64,000 nucleotides of DNA from an uncultured Planctomycetales bacterium (GTDB taxonomy: Bacteria; Omnitrophota; Gorgyraeia; Zapsychrales; JAHFFX01). Below the pieces are notes generated by a model. The model was given only the letters and a program-made list of their open reading frames with translations. It ran no database searches and was not told where the DNA came from. Location: assembly GCA_964612665.1 (NCBI GenBank), contig CAZTCI010000004.1, forward strand, positions 142,376-206,375, given 5' to 3'. A program made the translations under genes and the position numbers. This document shows, piece after piece, positions 9,336 through 41,105 of the stretch. Position 1 is the first letter of the stretch, and each line of letters starts with the position of its first letter.

Positions 9336-9417
9336 AAAGAAGTAGAGAAGTAAAAGGTAGAGAAATACAGAGAAAAATTCTAATCTCTACATCTTTACTT
9401 CTTGCTTCTCTACTTCT
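9336..9417. repeat. family A palindromic repeat (GTAGAGA / TCTCTAC type), copy A1
   Basis: Purine-rich arm aagaagtagagaagtaaaaggtagag pairs with ctctacatctttacttcttgcttctctacttctt. Directly 3' of glmS. Confidence 0.75.
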
Positions 9418-9423
9418 TAAACC

Positions 9424-10089
9424 ATGCTCTACATCGTCTCAACTCCTATCGGCAACTTAAAAGACATTACCCTTCGGGCGATTGAGGTTTTAAAAGGAGT
9501 TGATCTGATCGCCGCGGAAGATACGCGCCATACCAAAATCTTTACCCAGCATTATCAAATCGCAACACCGTTAACCAGCTATTTCGAACATAATCAGATT
9601 AAGAAAGCGGATTATTTGTTGAGCCTTTTAAAAGAAGGCAAGAAGATCGCTTTGGTCACCGACGCCGGGACTCCTGGAATTAGTGACCCGGGTTACCATT
9701 TGATCCGGTTGGTTCAGGAGAATGAGATCCCGATGACGGTCGTTCCGGGCGCGACAGCGTTGATTGCGGCGTTGTCGCTTTCGGGTTTGCCGGCGCACAG
9801 TTTTATTTTTGAAGGATTTTTGCCGGTCAAGTCAGCCGCCCGTCGGAAAAAGCTGGAATCAATGCGGGATGAGACCCGTACGATTATTTTTTATGAATCT
9901 CCGTACCGGTTGATTAAAACATTAAAAGATATTGCGGAAATTTGGAATGATCCGGTTGTTGTCTGCGCGCGGGAGTTGACAAAAAAATTTGAAGAGGTCA
10001 AGAAGGACAAGGCCAGTCAGTTGATGGAATATTTTGAACGGCACCAGCCTCGAGGGGAGTTTGTGTTGCTTTTGAATAGAAGTTCATAA
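9424..10089 (+). CDS. rsmI: 16S rRNA (cytidine1402-2'-O)-methyltransferase
   Basis: MLYIVSTPIGNLKDITLRAIEVLKGVDLIAAEDTRHT is the conserved RsmI tetrapyrrole-methylase-like N-terminus. Confidence 0.85.
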   Translation: MLYIVSTPIGNLKDITLRAIEVLKGVDLIAAEDTRHTKIFTQHYQIATPLTSYFEHNQIKKADYLLSLLKEGKKIALVTDAGTPGISDPGYHLIRLVQENEIPMTVVPGATALIAALSLSGLPAHSFIFEGFLPVKSAARRKKLESMRDETRTIIFYESPYRLIKTLKDIAEIWNDPVVVCARELTKKFEEVKKDKASQLMEYFERHQPRGEFVLLLNRSS

Positions 10090-10094
10090 AACAC

Positions 10095-10138
10095 GACGGG
10101 CGGCCCTGCATTGACGCAGCGATGCAGGGCCGCCCGTC
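10095..10138. terminator. GC-rich 17-bp perfect stem hairpin between convergent genes
   Basis: gacgggcggccctgcat / atgcagggccgcccgtc with a 10-nt loop. Sits between rsmI (+) and the tail-fibre-like gene (-). T-runs on the minus-strand side. Confidence 0.7.
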
Positions 10139-10153
10139 TAGAATTCAGTTAAT

Positions 10154-12145: not shown

Positions 12146-12194
12146 TTTGGCCGAGAAAGATTGTTGGTTAAGTAAAGATTTTCTTTTAAACCCG

Positions 12195-13824
<1,630 letters not shown>

Positions 13825-13904: not shown

Positions 13905-15203
13905 ATGTCGATTCTGATTAAAAACGCAATCATTGTGAGCGCTGATAAAATCGCTTCCAAGCCGCAAGATATCTTTCTTGAAAAAGGAAAAATTTCCAAG
14001 CTTGCGCCGAAATTGGATTTGTCCGCCGAGGAAACGATTGACGCGCAGGATAAGTTAGTTTTGCCTGGACTCATCGATCTTCATGTTCATCTGCGTGAAC
14101 CTGGCCGCGAAGATAAAGAAACGATTGAAACTGGTTCGCGCTCAGCCGCTAAAGGCGGATTTACTTCCATTTTTTGCATGCCGAATACGAATCCCGTTAT
14201 CGATAATGGGATGATCGTTGAAGCGATTATCAAAGAAGCTAAGCGCGTTGGGCTCGTGAATGTCTATCCGATTGGTGCGATCACGAAAGGCCAAAAGAAT
14301 GAAGAGCTGACGGATATGGCGGAACTTAAAAAATCCGGATGTCTGGTGCTTTCCGACGACGGAAAAGCGGTCGCCAACGGCCAGCTCATGCGCCGTGCTT
14401 TGGAATACGCCAAGATGCTTGGTCTTCTGCTTATTCAACACTGCGAAGACCCATTATTAAGCAATCACGGCTGCATGAATGAAGGCGTTACCTCGACGCT
14501 ATTAGGATTAAAAGGAATTCCAGGTGTTGCCGAAACAATTATTGTCGCCCGTGATATTGAACTCGCCCATTATCTTAAAACCAAAATTCATTTTGCGCAT
14601 ATGAGTTTAAAACGTTCGATTGAGTTAATTCGATTTGCTAAATCTCAAGGCATCTTCGTGACCGCGGAAGTTTGCCCGCATCACTTCACATTGACCGATG
14701 AAATTGTGAAATCATTCGATACCAACACCAAAGTCAATCCGCCGCTGCGCACGCAAGAAGACGTTGACGCTTTAAAAGAAGGCCTTAAAGACGGTACGAT
14801 TGACTGCATCACAACCGACCATGCACCGCACACCGCCGAGGAAAAAGAATCTGAATATGATCACGCGCCGTTCGGCATGATTGGATTAGAAACAGCCGTG
14901 GGTCTCGCCATAACCGAACTCGTCGAAAAAGAATATTTGACCTGGCCTGAACTCGTCAATAAAATGTCGACGATGCCAGCCAAGATCACCGGCTTAACAA
15001 ATAAAGGCGAAATCAAAGAAGGCAAAGACGCCGACATTACAATCATCGACTCCGATTGTGAATGGATTTTTCGTAAAGAAGAAATCACCTCCAAATCCAA
15101 AAACTCGCCTTTTATCGCACGTAAACTTAAAGGCCGGGTTGCCGCAACGATTTGTAATGGAAAGATAGTTTATGAACAGGAGAGAGAAGAGAGTAGAAAG
15201 TAG
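13905..15203 (+). CDS. pyrC: dihydroorotase
   Basis: LPGLIDLHVHLREPG and FTSIFCMPNTNP metal-binding motifs of amidohydrolase-type DHOase. The C-terminal residues are encoded by repeat A2. Confidence 0.85.
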   Translation: MSILIKNAIIVSADKIASKPQDIFLEKGKISKLAPKLDLSAEETIDAQDKLVLPGLIDLHVHLREPGREDKETIETGSRSAAKGGFTSIFCMPNTNPVIDNGMIVEAIIKEAKRVGLVNVYPIGAITKGQKNEELTDMAELKKSGCLVLSDDGKAVANGQLMRRALEYAKMLGLLLIQHCEDPLLSNHGCMNEGVTSTLLGLKGIPGVAETIIVARDIELAHYLKTKIHFAHMSLKRSIELIRFAKSQGIFVTAEVCPHHFTLTDEIVKSFDTNTKVNPPLRTQEDVDALKEGLKDGTIDCITTDHAPHTAEEKESEYDHAPFGMIGLETAVGLAITELVEKEYLTWPELVNKMSTMPAKITGLTNKGEIKEGKDADITIIDSDCEWIFRKEEITSKSKNSPFIARKLKGRVAATICNGKIVYEQEREESRK

Positions 15204-15256
15204 AGAGTCAGCAAATTTCGTATCACTCTCTACTCTCACCTTGCTCCTTTCTACTA
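15183..15256. repeat. family A palindromic repeat, copy A2
   Basis: gagtagaaagtagagagt...actctctactctc with extended arms. Spans the pyrC stop codon, directly before tRNA-Arg. Confidence 0.75.
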
Positions 15257-15276
15257 TATTTGAGTTCATTCGAATA

Positions 15277-15717: not shown

Positions 15718-15823
15718 TGAATTCTTGATCGTCGATAAATTCATTTTATCTGAATCTAAAAACATTGAAACAGCATCAATTAAGTAGTTAATGTCCATTT
15801 TCCATATCTACAACTCTTAGGAG

Positions 15824-15855
15824 TTATCCACAATCTGTATACAACATGTGGATAA
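15824..15855. promoter_or_regulatory. pair of perfect DnaA-box 9-mers in inverted orientation
   Basis: TTATCCACA at 15824..15832 and TGTGGATAA at 15847..15855, 14 bp apart. An AT-rich tract lies upstream. Confidence 0.4.
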
Positions 15856-15906
15856 CTTTTCTACTTCGCCTTCATACTTTTGTGTGGAGGCTTCGTAGGA
15901 ATTACG

Positions 15907-16380: not shown

Positions 16381-16382
16381 AA

Positions 16383-16465
16383 AAGAGAAGTAGAGAGGCA
16401 AGAAGCAAAGAAGCAGAGAAAAAGCGTTTATCTCTACTTCGCTGCCTCTTGCTTTTCTATTTCTT
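16383..16465. repeat. family A palindromic repeat, copy A3
   Basis: gaagtagagaggcaagaagcaaagaagcagagaaaa...tctctacttcgctgcctcttgcttttctatttctt. Confidence 0.7.
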
Positions 16466-16495
16466 AACCTCAGTCTTCCCCATACATAAAAACTC

Positions 16496-19080: not shown

Positions 19081-19992
19081 ATGAACATTTCAGTCAAAAT
19101 CGCCAATATAGAATTCAAGAATCCCGTGACCGTTGCCTCCGGTACTTTCGGTCACGCCGAGAAATTCTATAATTTGGAAGAAGTCAAAAAACTCGGCGCG
19201 CTTGTTCCCAAGACCGTGACGCTCAATCAGCGCATCGGCAATCCGCCGCCGCGGATTTTGGAAACGCCTTCGGGAATGTTAAACGCGATTGGGATTGAGA
19301 ATCCCGGAGTGGATGGGTTCATTGAAAACAAACTGCCCGCTTTAAGGAAAATTGGGATTCCACTCATCATAAGTATTCTTGAGAATACCGATGAGGATTT
19401 TGCCACGCTAACTAACAAATTTAATGAAGCACAAGGCGTTAGCGCGTTAGAATTAAATTTGTCGTGTCCAAATCTCAAACACAAAGTTTTAGTCGCGCAA
19501 GATCCGCAAGCGACGCATCGTGTGGTTAAATTGGTTAAAAGTATTTCGCGTTATCCAGTGATTGCGAAATTATCGCCGAATGTTACTGATATCGGCGTTA
19601 TGGCCAGAGCCGCGCAGGACGCCGGTGCTGATGCGGTAAGTTTAATCAACACTTTTTCGGCGATGGCAATTAACATTAAAACCCGGCGGTCGATTTTGGG
19701 AAATTTTACCGGAGGCTTAAGCGGCCCGGCGATCAAACCGATTGCCCTGCGCATGGTTTACGAAGCAACCAAAGCGGTTTCAGTTCCAGTCATCGCGATG
19801 GGCGGCATTATGAAAGCTGAGGATGCGCTGGAATTTATCATCGCAGGCGCGACCATGGTTGCCGTCGGGACAGCTAACTTCGTCAATCCTCGCGCGCCGC
19901 TTGAAGTTTTAGAAGGCATCAAACTTTATATGAAGCAAAATAAGATTAGTGATATTCGAGAACTTATTGGGAGTCTCAAAACGCATAGTTAA
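19081..19992 (+). CDS. pyrD: dihydroorotate dehydrogenase catalytic subunit (class 1B)
   Basis: NPVTVASGTFG...LSCPN...GGI core of PyrD. Start set at MNISV after repeat B1. Confidence 0.85.
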   Translation: MNISVKIANIEFKNPVTVASGTFGHAEKFYNLEEVKKLGALVPKTVTLNQRIGNPPPRILETPSGMLNAIGIENPGVDGFIENKLPALRKIGIPLIISILENTDEDFATLTNKFNEAQGVSALELNLSCPNLKHKVLVAQDPQATHRVVKLVKSISRYPVIAKLSPNVTDIGVMARAAQDAGADAVSLINTFSAMAINIKTRRSILGNFTGGLSGPAIKPIALRMVYEATKAVSVPVIAMGGIMKAEDALEFIIAGATMVAVGTANFVNPRAPLEVLEGIKLYMKQNKISDIRELIGSLKTHS

Positions 19993-20125
19993 ATTTTTTC
20001 CGTCCCCGCAGAGCGTAAGGCGGCCGGACGCGATATGATCGCCGAAGCCCCATCTACACCTCCGGGGTGCGGATGGGTTCTGCGAAGAGATTTAAAACAG
20101 ACGAAAAAACAAAAAAGGAGTCCGT

Positions 20126-22531
20126 ATGACAAAGTGGAAAAGATCGACGGGAAAAGGGTGGGCATGTACTCTGGCGGCTTTCATGATGCTTTTGATGGGG
20201 AGGGCCGCGTTTGCCGGCGAGGCGGATTTGGTTATCCCTGATTTATCTTCAGTTCACTTCTTAGGCGTTGACGGCCGTTCACTCCTCTTGTATGGCATGC
20301 TGATTTGTGTTTTTGGATTCGTCTTCGGGTTGATCCAATTTTTCAGTATTAAAAATATGCCGGTCCATTCCAGCATGCGCGACATCTCGGAATTGATTTA
20401 TGAAACCTGTAAAACTTATTTAATCACTCAGGGGAAATTTATTTTGATCCTGGAAGTTCTCGTCGGATGTATCATCGTCGCTTACTTCGGATGGCTTCGG
20501 CATTTTGAAGCGAACAAAGTTCTTTTGATTCTGATGGCGAGTTTGGTTGGGATTTCCGGGAGTTATATGGTCGCGTGGTTTGGGATGCGGATTAACACAT
20601 TTGCGAATTCGCGCAGTGCTTTTGCCAGTTTAAAAGGAAACCCCGCGCCGGTGTGTGAAATCCCGCTGCAAGCCGGAATGAGCATCGGCATGCTTTTGAT
20701 CAGCACGGAATTATTTGTCATGTTATGCATTTTGCTTTTTGTGAATCCAGCGAACGCTGGGCCGTGTTTTATTGGCTTTGCGATCGGCGAGTCCTTGGGC
20801 GCTTCTGTTTTACGTATCGCCGGCGGGATTTTCACAAAGATCGCGGATATCGGTTCGGATTTAATGAAGATTGATTTTAAAATTAAAGAAGACGACGCCC
20901 GTAATCCTGGTGTTATTGCGGATTGTACGGGTGATAACGCCGGCGATTCTGTCGGCCCGACGGCAGATGGGTTTGAAACTTACGGTGTCACCGGAGTCGC
21001 GCTCATTTCTTTTATTTTGCTTGCGGTTAAACAACCGCTTGTTCAAGTCCAGCTGCTGGTTTGGATTTTTGTAATCCGTCTCGTCATGATTATCGCGAGC
21101 GGGCTTTCGTATACGATCAATGGTTTTTTTGTGCAAAGCTCGTTGGCCAATAAAACTAAAGTGAATTTTGAAGTGCCCTTAACTTCGCTTGTATGGATCA
21201 CGTCGATTGTCTCGGTCGCGTTGACTTTTCTGGCGTCAGCGCTTTTAATTCCGACGCTGGGTGATGGAACGTTGTGGTGGAAACTGGCTTCAATTATTAC
21301 CTGCGGTACGCTCGCCGGTGCGATCATTCCTGAATTAGTGAAAATTTTTACCTCAACGGAATCACAGCATGTTCAAAACATCCGTCATTCATCGAACAAA
21401 GGTGGTGCGTCTTTAAATATTCTTGCAGGTTTGACGACGGGAAATTTCAGCGCCTATTGGATGGGCTTGACGATTATTTTAATCATGGCGATTGTGTATT
21501 TTATTAGTGGCATGGGTTTGAGTCAACTCATGATCGCGCCGGCGGTTTTTGCATTTGGTTTGGTAGCCTTTGGATTCTTAGGCATGGGGCCGGTCACACT
21601 CGCCGTCGATTCCTACGGTCCCGTCGCTGATAACGCCCAGTCCATTTATGAGCTTTCTTTGATTGAATCCATTCCCAATATTAAAAATGATTTAAAAACC
21701 AATTTCGGGTTTGAACCTAATTTTGAAAAAGCCAAATATTATTTGGAAACGAACGACGGCGCCGGAAATACTTTTAAGGCAACCGCCAAGCCAGTTTTAA
21801 TCGGAACAGCGGTCGTCGGCGCGACCACCATGATTTTTTCCATCATTGTTATCCTGACACAAGGTTTGACGGTCAATATCGATAAACTTTCCATTCTTTA
21901 TCCGCCGTTTTTCTTTGGGTTAATTACCGGCGGTGCGGTCATTTATTGGTTTACCGGCGCCTCCACCCATGCAGTCACCTCCGGCGCGTATCACGCGGTT
22001 GAATATATCAAAGACAATATTAAACTTGAAGGCGTTCAGAAAGCTTCAACCGAAGACAGTAAAAAGGTCGTTGAGATCTGCACGCAGTTCGCGCAGAAGG
22101 GGATGATCAATTTGTTTCTCGCGATTTTCTTTACGACGCTGGCCTTCGCTTGCTTTAATCCGTATTATTTTATCGGATACTTAATTTCGATTGCGATCTT
22201 TGGACTTTTTCAAGCGATCTTTATGGCGAATGCCGGCGGCGCCTGGGACAATGCCAAAAAGTTCGTCGAAGTTGATTTAAAAGAAAAAGGAACACAGCTT
22301 CATGCCGCGACCGTCATTGGTGACACCGTTGGAGATCCGTTCAAAGATACTTCCGCGGTTGCGATTAATCCGATTATCAAATTTACAACACTTTTCGGAT
22401 TACTCGCGATTGAAATCGCGATTGAATTAAGCCGCAATTTGTCGCTGGGGCTGGCGGTTGTCTTTTTTGCGGTGGCGTTGGTTTTTGTGGTGAAGTCGTT
22501 TAATGACATGACTATTAAGGTCAAAGAATAA
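20126..22531 (+). CDS. hppA: membrane-bound proton/sodium-translocating pyrophosphatase
   Basis: About 16 TM helices. GDNVGDxAG-type motifs (DCTGDNAGDSVGPTADGFE, GDTVGDPFKDT) are diagnostic of V-type H+-PPase. Confidence 0.9.
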   Translation: MTKWKRSTGKGWACTLAAFMMLLMGRAAFAGEADLVIPDLSSVHFLGVDGRSLLLYGMLICVFGFVFGLIQFFSIKNMPVHSSMRDISELIYETCKTYLITQGKFILILEVLVGCIIVAYFGWLRHFEANKVLLILMASLVGISGSYMVAWFGMRINTFANSRSAFASLKGNPAPVCEIPLQAGMSIGMLLISTELFVMLCILLFVNPANAGPCFIGFAIGESLGASVLRIAGGIFTKIADIGSDLMKIDFKIKEDDARNPGVIADCTGDNAGDSVGPTADGFETYGVTGVALISFILLAVKQPLVQVQLLVWIFVIRLVMIIASGLSYTINGFFVQSSLANKTKVNFEVPLTSLVWITSIVSVALTFLASALLIPTLGDGTLWWKLASIITCGTLAGAIIPELVKIFTSTESQHVQNIRHSSNKGGASLNILAGLTTGNFSAYWMGLTIILIMAIVYFISGMGLSQLMIAPAVFAFGLVAFGFLGMGPVTLAVDSYGPVADNAQSIYELSLIESIPNIKNDLKTNFGFEPNFEKAKYYLETNDGAGNTFKATAKPVLIGTAVVGATTMIFSIIVILTQGLTVNIDKLSILYPPFFFGLITGGAVIYWFTGASTHAVTSGAYHAVEYIKDNIKLEGVQKASTEDSKKVVEICTQFAQKGMINLFLAIFFTTLAFACFNPYYFIGYLISIAIFGLFQAIFMANAGGAWDNAKKFVEVDLKEKGTQLHAATVIGDTVGDPFKDTSAVAINPIIKFTTLFGLLAIEIAIELSRNLSLGLAVVFFAVALVFVVKSFNDMTIKVKE

Positions 22532-22540: not shown

Positions 22541-22622
22541 TAAGGAGAAAGGAGCGAGTAGAAAGTAGAGAGTCTGTGCAAGTTTGCATCTCTCTACTCT
22601 CTCCTTGTTACTCTCTACTCTT
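22541..22622. repeat. family A palindromic repeat, copy A4
   Basis: aaggagaaaggagcgagtagaaagtagagagt...actctctactctctccttgttactctctactctt. Fills the gap between hppA stop and pyrF start. Confidence 0.75.
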
Positions 22623-27671: not shown

Positions 27672-27733
27672 TTCTTCTACGTTCCAATGTTTACACGTTG
27701 GAGCTTCGAAGAAACAGGTTCCTATGAAGTACG

Positions 27734-27762: not shown

Positions 27763-27763
27763 T

Positions 27764-28972
27764 TTATTTGGACCACAATTCAGGAGCCGGGTTTAGGGTT
27801 TTTGTCAATACAAAGGCAGTCAGACCGCTGCTGACAAAAATTAGGAAGGCAATAAAAGTTAAACGTAAAACAAAGTAAGCATATTGATTAATTTGTTTGA
27901 CGGTGGTGATCCCTTTGATAATGAGAACGAGCACAACCGGCGCAAAAAAAAGCGAGGTGCGCGGGACCGTGAAAGGATATTTCTTTAACGCACCCAAGGT
28001 CACCAGTTCGACAAAAATAAAAAAGGCTATCGTTGTTAAATTTTTAGAGCGAAATTGATCTTTACGAATATTTGTTAAGAAACCATAAACCATTTCAAAA
28101 ATTCCAATCACCGCAAAAGGAATCCCAAATTTTTTAAAAGTTTTCGGCTTCTCCACAAACCAGCGGAAAAATAAATTACAGACACCCTCGCCGAATGTTT
28201 TAAAGAATTCGGGAATGGACTTCAGTGAAATAAAATAATCTGCCCAGTAATCCACAATCCTCACCGGTTTAAACCGCATGTCAAAACAGTAAGAGATCGT
28301 CGAGAAGAAGATACTCGCCAGTATAAACGTGAGTAAATATCGGCGTTGTTCAGGATTCTCCCGGCTCGCCAGCACTAAATTGTAAAAAACAATCGGAAGA
28401 AAGAAATAAGCTGGATAAGAAAAAAGCACGAGTGCCGGTAAAAGAGCCAGGATGATTCCATAACGGTTATCTTTGCGTGCCTGCAGAGTTTCTTGATTAT
28501 AAATAAATAAAATAAATAAAGCGGCGCTTAAGACATCCATTGAATATTGTTTAAGTTCTGCCGAGTAATAAATCAAAACCGCTGATGCGTTCCAACATAA
28601 AATAAAGGTTAGAACATCCAGTTTATTTTTGAATTCGTAATGGGCGATTTTAAGCCAAACAAAAAAAGCCGTAATCATGGCCGCAAAAGGAAGAAAGCGT
28701 AAGCTGATTAAATGATATTGGAAGGGCTGGGAAAATTTTTGGATGCAAAAAAGATAAAAGTGCGGGAAGACTTGGACGGCCATTAACATGTCATGAAAGA
28801 TGCGATAAGCGTCGAAGTCGCGAATGCTTTGAAAGACACAAAGCTCATCATTCCATAAAGGCCGCATGCAAAGTAAATGCAAAACGCAAAGCCATAGATA
28901 CCAAGAGGCAGCTGCGATAATGACAAATTTTAGAAAGCGTTCTAAGGGAGATGTTTGGGGTGATTGGTTCAT
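27764..28972 (-). CDS. GT-C superfamily membrane glycosyltransferase (ArnT/PMT-like)
   Basis: Polytopic membrane protein with the N-terminal periplasmic-loop motif RPLWNDE characteristic of GT-C polyprenol-phosphate-sugar-dependent transferases. Confidence 0.5.
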   Translation of the reverse strand: MNQSPQTSPLERFLKFVIIAAASWYLWLCVLHLLCMRPLWNDELCVFQSIRDFDAYRIFHDMLMAVQVFPHFYLFCIQKFSQPFQYHLISLRFLPFAAMITAFFVWLKIAHYEFKNKLDVLTFILCWNASAVLIYYSAELKQYSMDVLSAALFILFIYNQETLQARKDNRYGIILALLPALVLFSYPAYFFLPIVFYNLVLASRENPEQRRYLLTFILASIFFSTISYCFDMRFKPVRIVDYWADYFISLKSIPEFFKTFGEGVCNLFFRWFVEKPKTFKKFGIPFAVIGIFEMVYGFLTNIRKDQFRSKNLTTIAFFIFVELVTLGALKKYPFTVPRTSLFFAPVVLVLIIKGITTVKQINQYAYFVLRLTFIAFLIFVSSGLTAFVLTKTLNPAPELWSK

Positions 28973-28984: not shown

Positions 28985-29045
28985 GAATGAGCGAAGGAGC
29001 GGGCGCCCCGCTTCGGCGTAAAGCGCTGCGGCGGGGCGCCCGGCG
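28985..29045 (-). other. GC-rich intercistronic hairpin inside the minus-strand operon
   Basis: gggcgccccgc...gcggggcgccc 11-bp perfect stem in otherwise AT-rich DNA, between two co-directional minus-strand genes. Confidence 0.5.
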
Positions 29046-33840: not shown

Positions 33841-33911
33841 TTAATGATTCGAATATTAATTTTTAGGTTATGGTAACGAAGCCGGTTTCGTTAGGGGTTT
33901 GGGGTTAGGTG

Positions 33912-33943
33912 TTACTGGCCTTTTGCAATGCAAAAGTCAGTAA
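33912..33943. mobile_element. miniature derivative of the family C MITE-like element (32 bp)
   Basis: ttactggccttttgcaatgcaaaagtcagtaa joins the two termini of the 95-bp element. Sits inside a family D inverted repeat (33893..33989). Confidence 0.6.
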
Positions 33944-34031
33944 AAACATTTTATGTTATGATTCTTAGACTTTACCCTAACCTAAAACCGAAATGGGTCT
34001 CCTAACCTTAACCGTTAAGAAAAGTCAATCA

Positions 34032-35018
34032 ATGGGCCGCCCAAGAAAAGTTCTCATTGTTAAAACGGGATTTTCCGAATTTTTAGACCGCGGGATTTCG
34101 ACGACGGTGAGTTTAGGCGATGTGCATATTTGTACGGCGCTTTTGCATATTTATAAGAACGATAGTGTGACTTGGATGACTTCTTGGGACGCGCGGTTGC
34201 TTTTTAAGGATAATCCTTATGTTAAAGAGTTGCTGATCTTCGGGCCTCAAGCCATTCAAAAGATCACACAGGCGTCTTATGATCTTCTGATAAATTTGGA
34301 AAAAGACATCGGCATCTGCACCTTCTTACGTCACGTTAAAGCCAAAAAGCGTTTTGGGTTTTATTTTAGCGACCGTATCCATAATATTGCAACGCATAAT
34401 CGTGCCACTAAATATCTTTTAGCCGGACAGGAGAACCACCGCAACATTGATAAATCTGTTTTTGAAATTCTATATGAGGCCGTTGGGGAAAAGTGGAGCG
34501 GGCAGCTGCCGGTGTTTTCCCGTCAGCATAAAAGCGAAATTCGTTACGATGTTGGGTTTAACTACTCCGTCGGAACCAAATGGCCAACGAAGGCGTGGCC
34601 GGATGATAAATGGACGACGCTAGAAACGCTGCTTACGCCGCAATTCAAGATCAGCTGGCAGCGCGGACATCGGAACATTCTTCAATACGTTGACTGGTTA
34701 GACAGCTGCCGGGTTATTGTCACCTCCGATTCGCTGGCGCAATCGTTGGGTGTGGCGCTTGATAAAAAAGTCATTGTGCTTTATGGTCCAACCAATTCTC
34801 GTCGGGTGGAAGGACTTAAGAATTTGGAGGTCATCACATCATGTTTGGATTGTCCGCACATGCCGTGTTTTTCGCCGGTTTGTAAATTTGACCGTTTTTG
34901 TATGGATTATATTTCGCCCGAGCAGGTCGCGGGGATTTGCAGGTCTTGGCTGTCGTCGTCGGAAAGAAGTAAAGAAGCAGAGAAGCAAGAAATAGAGATG
35001 CAGAGAGTATTAATATAG
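34032..35018 (+). CDS. glycosyltransferase family 9 (LPS heptosyltransferase-like)
   Basis: VLIVKTGFSEFLDRGISTTVSLGDVHICTALLHIYKND matches the GT9 N-terminus (KILIIR.SSLGDV...). The C-terminal approximately 20 residues are encoded by repeat A5. Confidence 0.6.
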   Translation: MGRPRKVLIVKTGFSEFLDRGISTTVSLGDVHICTALLHIYKNDSVTWMTSWDARLLFKDNPYVKELLIFGPQAIQKITQASYDLLINLEKDIGICTFLRHVKAKKRFGFYFSDRIHNIATHNRATKYLLAGQENHRNIDKSVFEILYEAVGEKWSGQLPVFSRQHKSEIRYDVGFNYSVGTKWPTKAWPDDKWTTLETLLTPQFKISWQRGHRNILQYVDWLDSCRVIVTSDSLAQSLGVALDKKVIVLYGPTNSRRVEGLKNLEVITSCLDCPHMPCFSPVCKFDRFCMDYISPEQVAGICRSWLSSSERSKEAEKQEIEMQRVLI

Positions 35019-35090
35019 AAGTAGAGAAGTAAGAGGTAGAGATGTAGAGAAAATCTCTACATCTTTGCTTCTTTACCTCTCTACCTCTCT
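34961..35090. repeat. family A palindromic repeat, copy A5 (extra purine-rich half-arm plus full palindrome)
   Basis: gaaagaagtaaagaagcagagaagcaagaaatagagatgcagagagt then agaagtagagaagtaagaggtagagatgtagagaaaatctctacatctttgcttctttacctctctacctctct. Confidence 0.75.
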
Positions 35091-35118
35091 CGCGGAAAGT
35101 AAACTTAAAAGAACATCA

Positions 35119-36111: not shown

Positions 36112-36192
36112 TCGTTCGTTTGTTCGTCGTTCGAGGAAATCGTCCTTTTATTTTGAAATAAAAGAACGAATTCCTCGAACAACGAAAGCAGA
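36112..36192. repeat. family B palindromic repeat, copy B2
   Basis: gtcgttcgtttgttcgtcgttcgaggaaatcg...cgaattcctcgaacaacgaaagca. The arms pair as tcgttcgaggaa / ttcctcgaacaacga. Confidence 0.75.
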
Positions 36193-36336
36193 GACTGTTG
36201 AATAATGAAATTTGAACGCGAATATGCGCGAATTATTCGCGATATTCGTGTGAAATTCGCGAAAATTCGCGTTGACATTCAATCTTTCAATGTCTCAAAG
36301 CACGAACGACGCTTCGCCAAACTAAAACAACCAAAC

Positions 36337-37305
36337 ATGCCGTTAATAACCTCTGAGATTAAGAAACAACTCCTAACCAAGATGCTTAAAATCCGCGCTG
36401 CGGAAGAAAAGATCGTCGATGTTTACACGAAAGAGCAGCAGATCCGCACGCCTACGCATTTGTCGATTGGGCAAGAGGCGGTTGCGGCCGGGCTTTGTCA
36501 GGCGCTTACAAAAGAAGATCAGGTTTTTGCTGGACATCGTTGTCACGCGGTTTACTTGGCCAAGGATGGAGATTTGAACGCGTTTTTCGCGGAACTTTGC
36601 GGACGGATTACCGGCAGCAGCCGCGGGCGCGCCGGGTCGGCTCATTTAACAGACGTTGACAACGGTGTTTACTCTTCGCCGATTTTAGGCGCGATGATTC
36701 CTGTTGCCGTCGGGGCGGCAATGACATTTCAAATGGATCAAAAACCGAATGTCGCGGTTGCCATGTTTGGTGACGGCGCCATTGAAGAAGGGATTCTTGC
36801 GGAAAGTTTGAATTTTGCAATCACCAAAAAACTTCCAATCCTTTTTTTGTGTGAGAACAATTTGTATTCAACGCATTCACCTTTAAAAGTCCGCCAACCT
36901 TCTTCTGCGATTCATGAACGTCTGCGATTGAAAGAACTCAAAACCCAGCAGATCGACGGAAATGACGTCATCTTAGTTTATCAAACTATTTTAAACGCGA
37001 TTGAACAGATCCGCGAAGGCTGGGGCCCGAGCTTTGTTGAATGTTTAACGTACCGGATCCGTGAGCACGTCGGACCTTTGTTCGACTACGACCGCGGTTA
37101 TCGCAGCGAACAAGAAGTCCGTCAGTGGATGGACCGCTGTCCGGTTAAGCGTTACCGCAATCGATTGCTGGCCGAAAGAGTTTTTACGCTAACTGAAATT
37201 GAAGCGGAAGAAAAGAAATGGCAATACCTCGCCGATGAAGCTTATGCTAGTGCGCTTAAAGAGCCGTGGCCGTCGTCGGAAGATTTATTAAAATTTGTAT
37301 ATTAA
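36337..37305 (+). CDS. thiamine-diphosphate-dependent dehydrogenase E1 component, alpha subunit (PDH/acetoin DH E1-alpha-like); alternative upstream start 36205
   Basis: ThDP-binding GDGAIEEG...NN motif (FGDGAIEEGILAESLNFAITKKLPILFLCENNLYS). Followed by an E1-beta gene. The region 36205..36336 is rich in TTCGCGA repeats and may be regulatory rather than coding. Confidence 0.7.
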   Translation: MPLITSEIKKQLLTKMLKIRAAEEKIVDVYTKEQQIRTPTHLSIGQEAVAAGLCQALTKEDQVFAGHRCHAVYLAKDGDLNAFFAELCGRITGSSRGRAGSAHLTDVDNGVYSSPILGAMIPVAVGAAMTFQMDQKPNVAVAMFGDGAIEEGILAESLNFAITKKLPILFLCENNLYSTHSPLKVRQPSSAIHERLRLKELKTQQIDGNDVILVYQTILNAIEQIREGWGPSFVECLTYRIREHVGPLFDYDRGYRSEQEVRQWMDRCPVKRYRNRLLAERVFTLTEIEAEEKKWQYLADEAYASALKEPWPSSEDLLKFVY

Positions 37306-37378
37306 GTTTGCCAGTTTCCAGTTCACAGTTTTGAAAATTATTTAACTGGATAACTTGCCACTGGCTAACTGGAGAACT
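37306..37378. repeat. family F palindromic repeat (CCAGTT / AACTGG type), copy F1
   Basis: gtttgccagtttccagttcacagtt...aactggataacttgccactggctaactggagaact. Same family at 57039..57117. Confidence 0.7.
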
Positions 37379-37383: not shown

Positions 37384-38424
37384 ATGCGTCAACTAAGTTA
37401 CGCTGAAGCGATTTCCGAAGCACTGATCCAAGGAATGGAGCGCGACCCGGACGTTTTTATTTTCGGATTAGGCGTTGATGATCACAAAGGCGTTTTTGGA
37501 ACGACCCGACGGGCGTTTGAGAAATTTGGTTCGGCGCGTGTTTTTGATACGCCAGCGAGCGAAGCGGCATTAACCGGAATTGCGATGGGCGCGGCTTTAA
37601 ACGGCAAGCGTCCAATTTTAGTTCACGCGCGTAATGATTTTATGTTTTTGACGCTCGATCAAATGATCAATAACGCTGCTAAATGGAAATACACGTACGG
37701 CGGAAAATCTTCGGTGCCTTTTGTCGTGCGCGGGATTATAGGAAAAGGGTGGGGCCAGGGGCCGACGCATTCGCAAAGTATTCAATCGATCTTCGCGCAT
37801 TTCCCCGGGCTTTTGGTCGCGATGCCGACGACACCGTATGATGTGAAAGGAATTCTCTTAGAAAGTTTTCGCGTCGATACGCCCGTCGTTATCCTTGAGC
37901 ACCGCAGTTTATACAATTTAAAAGGCAATGTGCCCGACGGATATTATACGGTTCCATTCGGTCAAGCGCGTTGTTTGCGTGTGGGACAAGATGTCACGGT
38001 TGTGGCAACATCTTTTATGGCGCAAGAAGCGTTAAAGGCCGCCGAGATTTTGAGTCGAGAAAATATTAGTCTAGAAGTTATTGATCCTATCAGCCTGCAG
38101 CCTTTTGATGAAGCCGCCGTCATTGAATCCGTTAAGAAAACCGGGCGTTTGATTTCGGCGGACACCAGTTGGCTGTCATGCGGCTTTGCCAGCGAAGTCG
38201 CCGCCACCGTCGCGGAAAAAGCTTTTGAATATTTAAAAGCGCCAGTCCGTAGAATTGCCTGGCCAGCATGCCCTTGCCCAGTTTCAAAAAATTTAGAAGA
38301 TGTCTTTTACCGTTCTTATAAAGATATCATCGAAGCGGCTTGTGAATTGACAGGCAAAAAAGAAAAGACTGTTCAGTTCAAACAAGAAGAAGCGGTTGTG
38401 GATGTGTTTATGGGACCTTATTAG
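37384..38424 (+). CDS. E1 component beta subunit (transketolase-like pyrimidine-binding and C-terminal domains)
   Basis: MRQLSYAEAISEALIQGMERDPDVFIFG is the typical E1-beta N-terminus. Pyr-binding and TKC domains. Confidence 0.8.
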   Translation: MRQLSYAEAISEALIQGMERDPDVFIFGLGVDDHKGVFGTTRRAFEKFGSARVFDTPASEAALTGIAMGAALNGKRPILVHARNDFMFLTLDQMINNAAKWKYTYGGKSSVPFVVRGIIGKGWGQGPTHSQSIQSIFAHFPGLLVAMPTTPYDVKGILLESFRVDTPVVILEHRSLYNLKGNVPDGYYTVPFGQARCLRVGQDVTVVATSFMAQEALKAAEILSRENISLEVIDPISLQPFDEAAVIESVKKTGRLISADTSWLSCGFASEVAATVAEKAFEYLKAPVRRIAWPACPCPVSKNLEDVFYRSYKDIIEAACELTGKKEKTVQFKQEEAVVDVFMGPY

Positions 38425-38426
38425 GT

Positions 38427-38486
38427 GATAGGGTTTTAGGTGTCAGGTGTTAGGGACTAAAACTAAAACCTAAGACCCAAACCCTA
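38427..38486. repeat. family D palindromic repeat (GGGTTTAGG-type), copy D2
   Basis: tagggttttaggtgtcagg...cctaagacccaaaccctag inverted arms. Related arms flank the mini-MITE at 33893..33989. Confidence 0.6.
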
Positions 38487-38493
38487 GAAAAAT

Positions 38494-39495
38494 ATGAAAA
38501 GACGAATCATAGTCCTAGGCAGCAACTCATTCTCCGGCGCTGATTTCATTGATCTTCTGCTCGAAGATCCGATGAACGAAGTCATCGGCATCAGCCGCTC
38601 GCCGGAAAAGGATGAAGTTTTCTTACCTTATCATCGTCATGGGACGACGAAACGCTTTCAATTTTATCAGTTTGATTTAAACCAGCCTATCGACCGGGAA
38701 CGGATTTTTAGTTTGCTTGATAAATTCCAGCCCGAATATATTGTGAATTTCGCAGCGCAAAGTGAAGTCGGCCCGAGCTGGTCAACGCCCTGGCATTGGT
38801 TTGAAACCAACGCCGTCGCGCTTTCACATCTCATTGACCGTTTTAAGAATGCCAGTTATCTCAAAAGCTATGTGCATATTTCGAGTCCAGAAATTTACGG
38901 GTCATGCCAAGGCGTTGTGAAAGAAGATTCTTCCTTTAACCCCAGCACGCCCTACGCGGCTTCAAAGGCGGCGGCGGATTTGCTTTTGTTTTCCTATTTT
39001 AAAAATTATAAATTTCCTTTAGTTATTGTCCGCGCAACGAATGTCTATGGCGTGGGCCAGCAGCTTTTTAAAATTGTTCCGCGCACGGTGATTTCCATTA
39101 AATCCCGCCGGCCTTTGGAACTTCACGGGGGTGGCAAAGTCATCAAGTCATATATCCATATCCGCGATGTTTCTCGAGGAGAATTAGCCGCGATGCTTCA
39201 TGGACAACCGGGCGAAGTTTATCATTTCTCACCGCAGCGGGGAATCACAGTGCGGGAAGTTGTTGAAACAATTTGTGCCCGCATGGGCGTTGATTTTTCA
39301 ACTTCCATCAAATCCGTCGAAGAACGTTTGGGCCAGGACAACGCGTATGTCATTGATTCCTCGAAGGCGCAAAAAGAATTTGGCTGGAAGGTTGAAGTCC
39401 CTTTAGAGGAAGGGATTGATCAAGTGATCGAATGGATTAACCGCAACTGGGACCGCATTGAGCAATTGCCGTTTGAGTATATTCATAAAGAGTGA
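38494..39495 (+). CDS. NAD-dependent epimerase/dehydratase family protein (dTDP/UDP-sugar 4,6-dehydratase-like)
   Basis: IIVLGSNSFSGADF Rossmann-like N-terminus. YxxxK (YAASKAAAD). Confidence 0.7.
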   Translation: MKRRIIVLGSNSFSGADFIDLLLEDPMNEVIGISRSPEKDEVFLPYHRHGTTKRFQFYQFDLNQPIDRERIFSLLDKFQPEYIVNFAAQSEVGPSWSTPWHWFETNAVALSHLIDRFKNASYLKSYVHISSPEIYGSCQGVVKEDSSFNPSTPYAASKAAADLLLFSYFKNYKFPLVIVRATNVYGVGQQLFKIVPRTVISIKSRRPLELHGGGKVIKSYIHIRDVSRGELAAMLHGQPGEVYHFSPQRGITVREVVETICARMGVDFSTSIKSVEERLGQDNAYVIDSSKAQKEFGWKVEVPLEEGIDQVIEWINRNWDRIEQLPFEYIHKE

Positions 39496-39505
39496 TTAAT
39501 ATCTT

Positions 39506-40390
39506 ATGATATCGAGAGAAAAACCAACTGTCTTTATTCTTTCAATTAGCAGCGACATTGGACTTTTTCTGGCCAGGAAATATTTGGAGAGGGGCTGCCG
39601 TGTCATCGGAACATATCGTTCTCCAGAAGCTCTTGTCGAATTAAAAGCGTTAAAAGGTTGCGAACTCTTTCAATGCGATATTAGCCGGAAAGATAATGTG
39701 GATGAGTTAGTGCAATCTCTTAAAAGACTGAATGTACAGTGGCATACTTTCATTTCTTGCGTCGGGTATTTGCTCCCGGTTAAACCTTTTTTTAACGCGA
39801 GCTTTGAGGAATGGGAACAATCTGTTTTGATCAATTCCATCGATCAATTGCGTGTCTTACATAAACTTTATCCTTTTTGTGATCAAAGTAAAACAGCGAA
39901 TGTCGTTTTTTTCGCCGGTGGTGGCGCCAACAACGTGACAATCAGCATGTCCGCTTATGCGGCGGCTAAAATTCTATTAATGAAAATGTGTGAACATTTG
40001 GATGTTGAGAATAGTAACATGAAATTCTTTATGGTTGGGCCGGGTTGGACCAAGACAAAACTGCACGAAGTCATTTTAAAGACACCGGGCGTCGATCAAC
40101 ATAAATATCAGCAAACCAAAGAATTCATGGAAACAAAACAAGGGACTGCGCTACAGGAAATTTGTGAATGCATTGACTGGCTTTGTGAACAGGAAAAATC
40201 TGTTGTGAGCGGCCGCAATTTTTCTGTTGTCCATGACCCTTGGCGCATTGAAAGCCGGGAAGATCTCCTTCAAGCATTGAAAGCAGAACCTGAAATGTAT
40301 AAACTCCGTCGGTACAACAACGATTTTCTTCAAAATATTGAAAGTGTTTATGGGGAAGTCCAAAAAATTAAGCCAGCAAGAAGCGTATAG
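39506..40390 (+). CDS. short-chain dehydrogenase/reductase-like protein
   Basis: Rossmann N-terminus ILSISSDIGLFLARKYLERGCRVIGTYR. YAAAK catalytic motif. Confidence 0.55.
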   Translation: MISREKPTVFILSISSDIGLFLARKYLERGCRVIGTYRSPEALVELKALKGCELFQCDISRKDNVDELVQSLKRLNVQWHTFISCVGYLLPVKPFFNASFEEWEQSVLINSIDQLRVLHKLYPFCDQSKTANVVFFAGGGANNVTISMSAYAAAKILLMKMCEHLDVENSNMKFFMVGPGWTKTKLHEVILKTPGVDQHKYQQTKEFMETKQGTALQEICECIDWLCEQEKSVVSGRNFSVVHDPWRIESREDLLQALKAEPEMYKLRRYNNDFLQNIESVYGEVQKIKPARSV

Positions 40391-41042
40391 ACTCGGTACA
40401 GATTATCAGTTTGTCGACTTAATTGAGCTGGGACCGTGGTCGTCTTACAGCCTGCTTAACGACCCTAAGCATATGGGTTTTGTTTTGGCCCGTTATAAAT
40501 TTTGCGCCAAGATGTTGGAAGGAAAAAAGAAGGTCTTGGAAGTTGGTTGCGGTGATGGATTCGGCGCGCCAGTTGTTGCGCAGGCCGTTGGACATTTGGT
40601 TGCGATCGACCCCGAAGCCCGCCATATTGAAGGCAACAAACGGAGGCTGGCTAAAATTAAAAATATTGAATTTAAGCATATGGATATCTGCCACAGTCTG
40701 CCCGACGGAGAATTTGACGGCATTTTTTCAATCGATGTCATTGAACATTTGGACAAACCGCTTAATAAGAAATTTATGGAAAATCAGCGTGACTTGCTTA
40801 ACGACGACGGTGTTTGTATCATCGGTACCCCCAACATTACCGCGAATAAATACGCTTCACCGCGCAGCCGCGTTCAACACATCAATTTAAAAAGCCATAA
40901 AACGTTACGCATGCAGATGGAAAAATATTTTAGGAACGTTTTTATGTTCAGCATGAATGATGAAGTGTTACATACAGGCTATGCGCCGATGGGGCATTAT
41001 ATTTTTGGAATGGGAGTCGGGGTTAAGAAAAGTAGAGAGTAG
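40338..41042 (+). CDS. class I SAM-dependent methyltransferase
   Basis: VLEVGCGDGFGAPVVAQAVGHLVAIDPEA SAM-binding motif I. The C-terminal approximately 7 residues are encoded by repeat A6. Confidence 0.65.
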   Translation: MKVFMGKSKKLSQQEAYRLGTDYQFVDLIELGPWSSYSLLNDPKHMGFVLARYKFCAKMLEGKKKVLEVGCGDGFGAPVVAQAVGHLVAIDPEARHIEGNKRRLAKIKNIEFKHMDICHSLPDGEFDGIFSIDVIEHLDKPLNKKFMENQRDLLNDDGVCIIGTPNITANKYASPRSRVQHINLKSHKTLRMQMEKYFRNVFMFSMNDEVLHTGYAPMGHYIFGMGVGVKKSRE

Positions 41043-41105
41043 CAAGGAGCGAGGAGAGAGTGCCATTAGCTGACTCTCTACTTTCTCCTCTCTACTCGCT
41101 CCTTT
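41028..41105. repeat. family A palindromic repeat, copy A6
   Basis: aaaagtagagagtagcaaggagcgaggagagagt...actctctactttctcctctctactcgctcctt. Confidence 0.75.

Follow-up and report, generated by a model that had tools for sequence, protein, structure and literature searches.

Heptamers are in excess among long SSRs, according to the papers that cite Mrazek (2007). A paired case is that of Xanthomonas campestris and X. axonopodis, in which convergent arrays of the heptamer GGGAATC (70-75 pairs per genome) lie in intergenic positions, by preference between aligned ORFs and no more than ~50 bp from a stop codon (Rehm et al., 2015; PMC4692102). The number of units differs between related Xanthomonas genomes, while the repeat type is usually kept (PMC4692102). 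TAACTGA heptamers, known from Beggiatoaceae, Cyanobacteria and Bacteroidetes, are direct repeats (MacGregor, 2015; PMC4679880); the Guaymas genome holds 169 direct sets versus 1 inverted (PMC4679880). REP elements are defined by an unpaired GTAG tag (GYAG or GTRG) at one end of a GC-rich stem-loop with a 6-13-bp stem and a small loop (Di Nocera et al., 2013; PMC3733652). RAYT transposases accompany REP, BIME and REPIN elements (Bertels and Rainey, 2011).

We analysed a 64,000-nucleotide stretch of DNA (the window) in which an initial annotation had reported six palindromes built on GTAGAGA, here called family A. Judged by architecture, the closest published counterpart is the convergent GGGAATC arrays of Xanthomonas. 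In both systems, tandem heptamer arrays face each other on opposite strands, convergently, with the G-rich or purine-rich array first, and are intergenic, by preference between aligned ORFs and near a stop codon. The Xanthomonas unit, however, contains a G-tract, has been read as a G-quadruplex and shows a preference for four units, whereas GTAGAGA has no GG(G) tract and occurs in 2-11 units; the G-quadruplex feature is absent from family A. Furthermore, a genome with family A has several unrelated units, and one gap can hold different units across relatives. The taxa also differ, as family A is found in Omnitrophota/PVC and others and the GGGAATC arrays in Gammaproteobacteria.

TAACTGA and the cyanobacterial STRR heptamers share with family A a 7-nt unit, an intergenic location and a patchy spread across phyla. 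Like family A, TAACTGA arrays carry stops in three frames, so that they overlap ORFs only at the end, they often abut a start codon without a Shine-Dalgarno sequence, and slippage has been proposed for them; they are, however, direct arrays that run toward the downstream start codon and form no hairpins. The MITE-like ORF extenders (RPE of Rickettsia, Correia elements of Neisseria and the MITEs of Coxiella) resemble family A as small non-autonomous elements with presence/absence differences, long hairpins and codons contributed to proteins, but their termini are defined, they have target-site duplications and their internal sequence is unique, whereas the arms of family A are simple-sequence arrays.

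Family A in the window

An unbiased inverted-repeat scan recovered all six palindromes at the coordinates first reported (I5-I8, I12, I15). All lie in gaps between plus-strand genes, and the upstream gene names agreed with those given initially: glmS, pyrC, an SLOG/LOG-like gene, the H+-PPase gene hppA, GT9 and a methyltransferase. The palindromes measure 80-130 bases, carry no strand assignment and occupy small gaps 3' of genes. GTAGAGA occurs 20 times on the two strands of the window, where 2.36 ± 1.4 would be expected, and the six elements contain 19 of these occurrences. The arms consist of 7-8-nt units in tandem (TRF period 7-8, 2-11.5 copies per arm), with the unit variants GTAGAAA, GTAGCAA, GCAGAGA and GGAGAGA. 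The grouping of the six into one family holds in a loose sense, since the mean column identity is 65% and the common trait is the tandem arms of 7-8-nt period. Rfam gave no match for family A.

Copy 1 (9334..9420) lies between glmS and an rsmI-like gene and ends 5 nt before the next ATG. Its purine arm consists of 8-nt-period units (AGAAGTAG, 4.5 copies), followed by a 12-nt loop and the pyrimidine arm (TRF period 8); the arms are 35 nt long and 80% complementary (I5), and the RNA dG is -37.4 for the sense and -31.5 for the antisense strand. Copy 2 (15176..15258; I6) separates pyrC from a tRNA-Arg at 15277 and has a TRF period of 7. Copy 3 (16381..16467), between the SLOG/LOG-like gene and fpg/mutM, is composed of GTAGAGA, GCAAGAA, GCAAAGA and GCAGAGA units (dG -41.1). 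Copy 4 (22541..22622; I7) lies between hppA and pyrF and also ends 5 nt before the next ATG. Copy 5 (34961..35092; I8, I15, I17, I18), between GT9 and an epimerase, is composite, with a purine array of 11.5 units of AGAAGTAG (34965-35051), a pyrimidine array (35053-35090) and an inner palindrome at 35019-35088. Copy 6 (41028..41106; I12, I23), between the methyltransferase and a TPP-enzyme gene, contains GTAGAGA, GTAGCAA, GGAGCGA and GGAGAGA units. The loop-side motif CAGAGAAAAA...ATCTCTAC is common to copies 1, 3 and 5.

Copies 1 and 3 have exact matches in Logan assemblies, the former in an independent assembly and the latter in contig L182, and Logan contig L001 ends within copy 2, at 15228. 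Contig breaks inside family A palindromes were observed in short-read assemblies. The window contains at least four further elements with other units, and at least two further families, with the units CCAGTTY and GGTTAGG, have the same architecture. An integron attC site was rejected, as neither GTTRRRY nor RYYYAAC stands at the ends and the genes on either side are housekeeping genes in synteny (glmS, pyrBC, hppA, fpg).

Three upstream ORFs had been proposed to run into the purine arm, and the translations bear this out: pyrC (...EQEREESRK*), GT9 (...QRVLI*) and the methyltransferase (...GVKKSRE*) all end at a TAG of the repeat. The pyrC ORF has 8 codons within the purine arm of copy 2, where the TAG of the second GTAG unit (15201-15203) is its stop codon, and in copy 6 the second unit supplies the TAG that ends the methyltransferase ORF (41040-41042). 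The GT9 tail, ...ERSKEAEKQEIEMQRVLI*, is the translated first part of the copy 5 purine array; the GT9 domain itself extends to residue 300 of 341. The suggestion that such K/E-rich tails are lineage-specific holds for pyrC, whose orthologs end ...GGKVVY(K/Q)xx*. The K/E/R tail of pyrC is derived from the element.

Folding and orientation of the paired arrays

The arms of family A are 20-39 nt long and AT/purine-rich, with 74-90% complementarity; the loops measure 3-20 nt and reach ~30 nt in the relative L065. The predicted inter-arm hairpin has 25-35 bp and a dG of -25 to -47 kcal/mol (z = -5 to -10). Sense and antisense RNAs show no significant difference in folding (n = 43, mean -0.97 kcal/mol, Wilcoxon p = 0.20), with 104 versus 86 G.U pairs, and this lack of asymmetry fits a symmetric element at the DNA level. 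The two arms of an element can differ in length, with 4 units against 1 in L030 and 3 against 7-12 in L039 and L072, and the unit variants of one arm are not mirrored in the other, which together fits slippage.

The purine arm had been described as always upstream, in strict orientation to the genes. This order is a geometric tautology of the palindrome type and not a matter of placement, because the reverse complement of purine arm, loop and pyrimidine arm has the same order; the order therefore carries no information on gene orientation. The opposite palindrome type (TCTCTAC...GTAGAGA) was looked for, with zero occurrences. The asymmetric loops and the core do reveal orientation, and they occur both ways round in the window and in the relative L065. 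A tight core had been attributed to three copies: the exact 17-mer AGTAGAAAGTAGAGAGT is present in copies 2 and 4 (at 15192 and 22557), while copy 6 has it with one mismatch and on the minus strand. Copies 2 and 4 are oriented alike (alignment score 50 forward, 34 reverse), and the centre of copy 6 matches that of copy 2 better as the reverse complement (45) than forward (30). Copy 6 is thus inverted relative to copies 2 and 4, and both orientations are present in the window. Unique internal sequence in either orientation, a feature of MITEs, is seen in the L065 loop and in window copies 2 and 4 versus 6, which have the core and loop edge in common; the window evidence is weaker because the window loops are short.

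The units might also be true GTAG-tagged REP/REPIN members moved by a GTAG-recognising RAYT, the heptamer being GTAG plus three spacer bases. Like REP, BIME and REPIN elements, family A consists of high-copy intergenic palindromes behind genes, in several families per genome, with long hairpins as in the dimers, occasional ORF extension and GTAG alongside GYAG/GTRG forms (PMC3733652). Six extragenic copies in 64 kb lie downstream of genes in the unidirectional or convergent setting of REPs, and every unit has GTAG or a degenerate form reported for REP tags (GYAG, GTRG, GTGG; PMC3733652). The REPs known from PVC bacteria, Chloroflexi and Cyanobacteria carry the GTAG tag, and REP dimers fold into larger hairpins, are located downstream of genes and can extend ORFs by additional codons. 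In family A, however, GTAG lies inside the stem, paired with CTAC 2-5 times per arm at 7-8-nt spacing, and is not an unpaired tag. A purine-only arm cannot pair with itself, so that the tandem, AT/purine-rich units form no 6-13-bp stem each and only the long inter-arm hairpin results. The sister families CCAGTTY, GGTTAGG and CGTCGCT have the same architecture without GTAG. A phmmer search of 1.5 Mb of DNA with E. coli RayT found one Y1_Tnp ORF, in another Omnitrophota MAG (L006); the presence of this gene speaks for the reading, but its neighbours are classical GC-rich GTAG REP hairpins and not heptamer arrays, and a RAYT linkage of family A is only hypothetical. Classical GTAG-REP membership was rejected on structure, as both the unpaired tag and the short self-complementary stem are absent, and we regard true membership as very improbable.

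Occupancy of the same gaps in related genomes

Orthologous gaps in syntenic relatives were compared with those of the window. In the closest relative, L120 (80% aa identity), the gap between pyrC and the tRNA has no element; the pyrC product has the C-terminus ...KSI*, and only ~10 nt separate the gene from the tRNA. The glmS-rsmI gap measures 3 nt in L123, and the LOG-fpg gap is empty in both L120 and L123. In L121, the gaps after glmS, LOG and hppA hold palindromes of CGTCGCT/CGTGACT units: a CGTCGCT-unit palindrome after glmS, a GTGACTCGTCGCTCGTG... palindrome between LOG and fpg, and a palindrome with 37-nt arms of GTCGCTC-type heptamers after hppA. The gap after pyrC contains ACTGNNG or GTCCACG units in L122 and L124. 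Sites filled in the window and empty in L120 and L123 show the presence/absence pattern of MITEs, although these relatives share only 65-80% aa identity with the window and none is closer than ~60-80%, so that the sites are not alignable base by base and gain and loss are inseparable.

L065 carries three family A copies with a common non-repetitive loop of ~30 nt, one of which is flipped although the genes are codirectional. This combination points to copy-and-paste dispersal. Two of the three occupy gaps in which the window carries family B and family C. Among 45 classifiable multi-unit family A elements, 39 lie in codirectional, 4 in convergent and 2 in divergent gaps, with one more inside a gene; they start mostly within ~30 nt of the upstream stop. 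Genomes with family A contain ~29 unascertained paired arrays of other units in 816 kb, and no paired arrays were found in 433 kb of viral DNA.

Placement of this kind could also reflect selection by the host for non-canonical, perhaps bidirectional, transcription terminators or for stabilisers of mRNA 3' ends that arose and persisted in situ where transcription units end, which we consider unlikely. As in bidirectional Rho-independent terminators, the hairpins follow directly after genes, and on either strand their 5' side is A-rich and their 3' side rich in pyrimidines; the purine-first order would ensure that transcripts of both strands have a pyrimidine/U-rich 3' arm. Elements follow the last gene of units (pyrC of pyrR-pyrB-pyrC; glmS; hppA), the hairpins are very stable by z-score, divergent gaps are rare, A5/T5 runs flank some relatives' copies (L065), and L121 has another hairpin family in the same gaps, as if a hairpin were needed. 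Nevertheless, a T4 run occurs within 15 nt downstream in 7 of 42 multi-unit elements and an A4 run upstream in 9 of 42, with no directional bias, and the sense strand has no folding advantage. In the closest relatives the genes abut at these sites and no hairpin is present, so that it is dispensable there, and evolution in place leaves the same unit and the common unique loops at unlinked sites unexplained. Ordinary GC-rich/T-tract hairpins are found elsewhere in the window (10095-10138, 27727-27769, 29000-29042), and a consensus terminator scan called no family A element. A canonical Rho-independent terminator was rejected: few elements have the U-tract, and the stems are long, AT/purine-rich and GC-poor with loops of up to 20-30 nt, in contrast to GC-rich stems of 5-15 bp with 3-8-nt loops. 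Of the initial description as REP/terminator-like, the REP likeness stands as a functional analogy, while the canonical terminator does not.

It is more improbable that the arrays are binding sites for a protein that reads ~7 nt per module and controls translation or transcription of the adjacent downstream gene. On RNA it could belong to the cold-shock-domain, S1 or CsrA type, which has been suggested for the TAACTGA repeats, and on DNA it could be a heptad-binding repressor. The unit and its period are conserved rather than exact arm complementarity, and a GTAGAGA-like unit is retained across genomes of 35-66% GC. Several copies stop 0-8 nt short of the next start codon with no intervening Shine-Dalgarno sequence, and intergenic TAACTGA repeats offer a parallel (PMC4679880). 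This proximity is not specific, however, because the elements fill the whole gap. The inverted arrangement would hide the sites in double-stranded stems, the genes that follow the elements have no function in common (rsmI, a tRNA, fpg, pyrF, an epimerase and a TPP enzyme), the orthologous genes of close relatives have no element or another unit, and no candidate protein was found.

Dispersal and possible consequences for the host

We favour, with about even confidence, the interpretation that family A is one of several REP-like, dispersed families of inverted heptamer-array repeats that spread by copy-and-paste in a PVC/Omnitrophota-like genome. The term REP-like is a fair functional analogy, as the elements are dispersed, palindromic, intergenic and behind genes, vary in occupancy and sometimes donate codons and a stop. 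Copy-and-paste acting on the DNA palindrome would spread the copies, and the leading candidate enzyme would be a hairpin/ssDNA-specific Y1-HUH (RAYT-like) protein. No transposase, target-site duplication or defined termini and no related IS were found for family A; the comparison of filled with empty sites revealed no recognisable target-site duplication, with flanks too diverged for a clear comparison.

Copies survive almost only in small gaps behind genes, where they can replace the last codons and stop of the upstream gene. Purifying selection may remove all insertions except those that fall after one gene's stop codon and before the start of the next gene. Since each unit contains TAG and the period is not a multiple of 3, stops would arise in three frames within three units, and with the purine arm 5' on either strand this would hold for both strands, so that an insertion at a gene end may cost few K/E/R codons. 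The arrays would subsequently lengthen or shorten through replication slippage. Further points weigh against this interpretation. For a small genome to carry several unit families, either several specific enzymes or one structure-specific enzyme would be needed, and different families at one gap across species could equally mean a required hairpin that turns over.

With mobilisation and function hypothetical, family A can be placed among REP-like or heptamer-SSR intergenic repeats, a little-studied class that varies between related genomes. When transcribed together with the upstream gene, the modelled hairpin probably blocks 3' exonucleases or insulates neighbouring cistrons from each other, an effect that would be a by-product rather than a demonstrated selected function.

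Architecture of the palindromes in the window

When the whole window was scanned for inverted repeats without prior bias, the scan recovered the six family A elements, which are GTAGAGA-type purine/pyrimidine palindromes, at the positions claimed in the initial annotation. All six occupied gaps between plus-strand genes, and the flanking gene names given at that stage were right. GTAGAGA occurred 20 times across both strands of the window, compared with 2.36 expected from dinucleotide shuffles, and 19 of these occurrences fell within the six elements. A 20-base derivative pattern (AAGTAGAGAGT-N8-38-ACTCTCTAC) matched three of the six copies against a chance expectation of zero, and the mirror arrangement, with the pyrimidine arm first, was never found in the window. 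Elements 1 and 3, which follow glmS and the SLOG/LOG-like gene, were reproduced base for base by independent Logan assemblies that break within other palindromes of the window; the elements are therefore no artefact of a single assembly.

Analysis with Tandem Repeats Finder (TRF) revealed that each family A arm is a tandem array with a period of 7–8 and 2 to 11.5 units, including GTAGAGA, GTAGAAA, GTAGCAA, GCAGAGA, GGAGAGA and similar heptamers. The arrays of the arms were unequal in length, and unit variants in one arm were not mirrored in the other. As column-by-column identity among the copies was only 65%, the property they have in common is their architecture. A core had been described in three copies: the 17-mer AGTAGAAAGTAGAGAGT was exact in copies 2 and 4 (pyrC–tRNA-Arg and hppA–pyrF gaps), but copy 6 (methyltransferase–TPP-enzyme gap) carried it with one mismatch and on the minus strand. 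The centre of copy 6 also aligned better with copy 2 when reversed (45) than forward (30); together with the minus-strand core, this shows that copy 6 runs opposite to copies 2 and 4. The observation that the upstream arm is always the purine-rich strand fails as evidence of gene orientation, because the reverse strand again reads purine arm, loop, pyrimidine arm; orientation can be read only from the asymmetric parts of an element. The description of upstream ORFs running into the purine arm was accurate, with three ORFs receiving their tail codons and a TAG stop from the elements. The gap holding copy 2 is the 3′ end of a pyrR-pyrB-pyrC operon, upstream of which lies a PyrR-binding leader (Rfam RF00515, 54.5 bits, barely over the gathering score; 12178–12287).

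By our own count, array palindromes were present in approximately 10 of 16 codirectional window gaps of 60–160 nt. Family B occupied two such codirectional gaps (37305–37375 and 57038–57118), each with an arm of tandem CCAGTT(Y)(C) 7–8-mers paired with an AACTGG(N) arm; its second arm includes TAACTGG, one base off the TAACTGA heptamer of Beggiatoaceae and Cyanobacteria. Family C (33885–33990 and 38424–38490) opposed GGTTAGG, GGTGTTA and GGGTTTTAGG units to CCTAACC-type units. These units are G/T-rich and telomere-like in appearance, and a TTTAGGG array in the syntenic relative L124 (17319–17398) is related to them.

Palindromes of other kinds were also observed. Ordinary GC-rich or T-tract hairpins were located at 10095–10138, 27727–27769 and 29000–29042. 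A long palindrome directly after ORF 4575–5687 (5692–5826; 60-nt arms, 83% complementary) lacked a heptamer period, and both Logan contigs begin within it, at 5797. Another, with 31-nt arms that are 90% complementary, lay in the gap that follows the epimerase gene (36123–36186), followed by a tandem/palindromic region of five CGCGAATATT units (36198–36290) overlapping the start of ORF 36205–37305. GC-rich nested palindromes on CCCCAACC/GGTTGGGG (51054–51125) spanned the junction of the overlapping or adjacent ORFs 50345–51097 and 51116–52135; a CCCCCCCCAACGGGACGTTGGGGGGGG hairpin at 6470–6500 of L065, a metagenome-assembled genome (MAG) locus, resembles them. Two perfect inverted DnaA-box nonamers (TTATCCACA; 15822–15857) were found within the 530-nt non-coding stretch from tRNA-Arg to the SLOG/LOG-like gene, and they could mark an origin-related or DnaA-regulated site.

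Gap contents in related genomes

Relatives of the window were identified by a metagenome scan with pyrC. They were syntenic, with 65–80% amino-acid identity, and their gaps were inspected directly. In the closest relative, L120, the pyrC–tRNA-Arg gap carried no element: pyrC ended in ...GGKVVYKSI* and the tRNA followed after approximately 10 nt. The same gap held an ACTGNNG-heptamer palindrome in L122 and a palindrome of GTCCACG/GACCATG heptamers in L124. The pyrC ORF extended into a non-conserved tail in L122 and L121 too, the insert in L121 being different. Between glmS and rsmI, L123 had a 3-nt gap and L121 a CGTCGCT/CGTGTCT palindrome, a family that L121 also carried after hppA and between the LOG-like gene and fpg, the latter gap being empty in L120 and L123. 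The obtained results showed that the architecture is clade-wide, the unit genome-specific and the occupancy variable. For pyrC, the orthologs bore out the expectation that the K/E-rich tail is lineage-specific; EQEREESRK derives from the element. A near-isogenic pair of filled and empty sites was not found, the fpg protein search returning no relative above 60% identity. A GC-rich structured leader precedes hppA in the window (19992–20126) and in L121 (16105–16340, where it reads GGGGCGCCCCG...CGGGGCGCCCCGG); L120 and L124 lack the hppA gene itself at this place.

Taxonomic placement is tentative; the closest named homologs were from Omnitrophica WOR_2 (54%) and the L065 MAG, which is labelled Planctomycetales and showed 58–73% identity to the window in four proteins. 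Of the three family A copies in L065, two sat where the window has families B and C in the gap. A unique loop of approximately 30 nt was common to all three, and the third copy was flipped although all genes there are codirectional. The presence of the same unique sequence in both orientations points to copying and not to independent local evolution. With both orientations present in the window and in L065, the strict orientation claimed initially is wrong. L065 also carries a nested palindrome of approximately 240 nt (7320–7560) between two transketolase-like genes, orthologs of window 45581–47499, whose outer arms consist of approximately 9-nt units (ATGTTGCCG / CGGCAACAT type) and whose inner arms consist of AATGTCA/TGACATT units.

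Wider distribution and comparison with known repeats

Scanning genome collections with the 20-base pattern gave more than 117 loci among the matches listed. Approximately half were plain hairpins whose stem matched by accident, such as a hairpin conserved in Chloroflexota and a tRNA terminator of acI Actinobacteria. In the remaining half, extra GTAG/GTGG heptamers lay to the sides, just as they do in the window; the sources of these loci were Omnitrophota, Planctomycetota, Acidobacteriota, Anaerolineae, Edwardsbacteria, Actinomycetota, Gemmatimonadales and others, at 35–66% GC. Control scans of viral contigs returned 9 matches to the real pattern, 6 to the pyrimidine-first mirror, and 29 and 6 to two scrambles, with no multi-unit array among them. 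Single-unit matches therefore represent a generic hairpin background, and only multi-unit arrays, with tandem heptamers in the arms, are specific. Surveyed by TRF without regard to unit, the bacterial loci above (816 kb) contained 64 paired inverted arrays, approximately 29 of them with unrelated units, whereas 433 kb of viral DNA contained none. As approximately 2,340 heptamer necklaces are possible and the search covered 596 Gb, the recurrence of GTAGAGA across phyla may be due to chance, and we do not claim a universal motif.

The Omnitrophota MAG JBDRHE01 carried a high-copy, ~90% identical family A version (TAAGTAGCGAGTAGCAAGTAGAGAGTAGAGAGAG-loop-CTYGCTACTTGCTACTCTCTACTCGCTACTTA) in at least 10 copies (L013, L017, L021, L031, L038, L040, L066, L070, L091 and L097), often inside an outer inverted repeat of CAGATNAGCRCAGA-type units. 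The Chloroflexota single hairpin AAGTAGAGAGTAG-loop-CTACTCTCTACTT (L045, L046, L051, L057 and L099; reversed in L041, L059, L100 and L111) preceded a conserved gene start (ATGGACTTTCTGGATAAAC..., MDFLDKL...) by a few bases in many MAGs of Anaerolineae/Chloroflexota. It resembles a 5′ leader specific to the lineage, or the end of a mobile gene, and has no relation to the arrays.

Among published architectures, the nearest is that of the convergent GGGAATC heptamer-array pairs of Xanthomonas, which number 70–75 per genome and lie between aligned ORFs near stop codons (PMC4692102). Those arrays were interpreted as G-quadruplex formers (PMC4692102), of which GTAGAGA is incapable; G-quadruplexes were rejected for family A for lack of G-tracts. 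Family A has its period, its stops in all frames and its patchy phylogeny in common with the intergenic TAACTGA direct repeats, which are almost never inverted (PMC4679880). The excess of heptamer repeats among bacteria, on record since 2007, is not known to have been explained. Among the papers searched, none contained an exact match to GTAGAGAGTAGAGAG and none connected Omnitrophota with REP or MITE elements.

A true GTAG-REP/RAYT system is one rival reading; family A does behave like a REP, as was initially proposed. Classical GTAG REPs, however, consist of an unpaired GTAG tag beside a 6–13-bp stem-loop (PMC3733652); family A does not have this anatomy and is therefore not classed as REP. 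Probing 1.5 Mb with E. coli RayT identified one Y1_Tnp (IS200-like/RAYT-like) gene, encoded by the minus strand of the Omnitrophota MAG locus L006 (JADHWG010000017.1, 3641–4330) with purA on one side and an OmpA-family gene on the other. Classical GC-rich hairpins with GTAG tags come after it (3480–3620), so that the sole transposase found adjoins classical REPs and not arrays, and we regard such a system as very unlikely. Elsewhere in L006 (2370–2492), (CAGGTTA)2(CACGTTT)4 arrays and their complements flank both sides of a GC-rich core hairpin, a layout indicating that arrays are able to lengthen a terminator-like stem.

Function, spread and significance

Folded as RNA, the elements reached −25 to −47 kcal/mol (z = −5 to −10). 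Among 45 classifiable multi-unit elements, 39 lay in codirectional, 4 in convergent and 2 in divergent gaps, with one further element inside a gene, and most started no more than approximately 30 nt past the upstream stop. A selected non-canonical terminator or stabiliser would suit stable hairpins placed behind genes. Sense and antisense folding showed no asymmetry across 43 elements (mean −0.97 kcal/mol; 22 sense, 19 antisense; Wilcoxon p = 0.20; G·U pairs 104 vs 86) or in the six window copies alone, and RNA-level selection was rejected on this equality. A downstream T4 run was present in only 7 of 42 elements, with an upstream A4 run in 9 of 42, and a consensus terminator scan called none; the terminator label of the initial annotation is thus unsupported and a canonical terminator was rejected. 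We therefore consider the selected terminator or stabiliser unlikely. Rfam gathering and E-value scans returned only sub-threshold matches to eukaryotic miRNA-precursor hairpins and no family. Integron attC sites were rejected because core sites are absent, DNA-uptake sequences because only 1 of 20 motif copies stood isolated in coding DNA, and H-DNA/triplex because the arms are not mirror repeats. A platform for a heptamer-reading protein would make use of the regular period; we judge it distinctly improbable.

Family A is a real feature, a variant of REP-like or heptamer-SSR intergenic repeats, whose mobilising mechanism, and host function if any, are putative. In our preferred account, the DNA palindrome would spread by copy-and-paste via an enzyme that is probably hairpin- or ssDNA-specific, insertions would be filtered afterwards by selection, and slippage would alter unit number. 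With TAG once per 7-nt unit, all three frames would be stopped within three units, and since both strands have the purine arm at their 5′ side, this would hold for either direction of insertion; landing at the very 3′ end of a gene would therefore be cheap. As a by-product, the transcript hairpin would probably obstruct exonucleases or insulate cistrons from one another. We give this account, taken as a whole, an even chance of being correct.

A broader reading, which we hold to be improbable, is that inverted heptamer arrays are the product of one structure-directed process, in which hairpin cassettes are built, copied and exchanged at gene 3′ ends irrespective of unit, and that the recurrence of GTAGAGA/GTGGAGA at 35–66% GC reflects a conserved recognition code and not chance. 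Such a process may be common to particular lineages within Omnitrophota, Planctomycetota, Acidobacteriota, Anaerolineae, Gemmatimonadota, Actinomycetota and Xanthomonas, and the code may consist, for instance, of GTAG recognised by Y1-HUH enzymes, or be that of an RNA/ssDNA-binding protein taking 7 nt per module.

If the overall picture of family A and its sister families holds, fast-turning-over heptamer hairpin cassettes take up a sizeable share of the short gaps in these compact genomes of uncultured lineages. In practice, array palindromes break short-read assemblies, lead annotation to spurious C-terminal tails rich in K/E/R and to shifted stop codons, and could be confused with terminators or sRNAs. 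Their several unit families, variable orthologous occupancy and common unique loops provide a comparative handle on the origin and spread of arrays, which bears equally on whether REP/RAYT-type mobilisation reaches simple-sequence hairpins.
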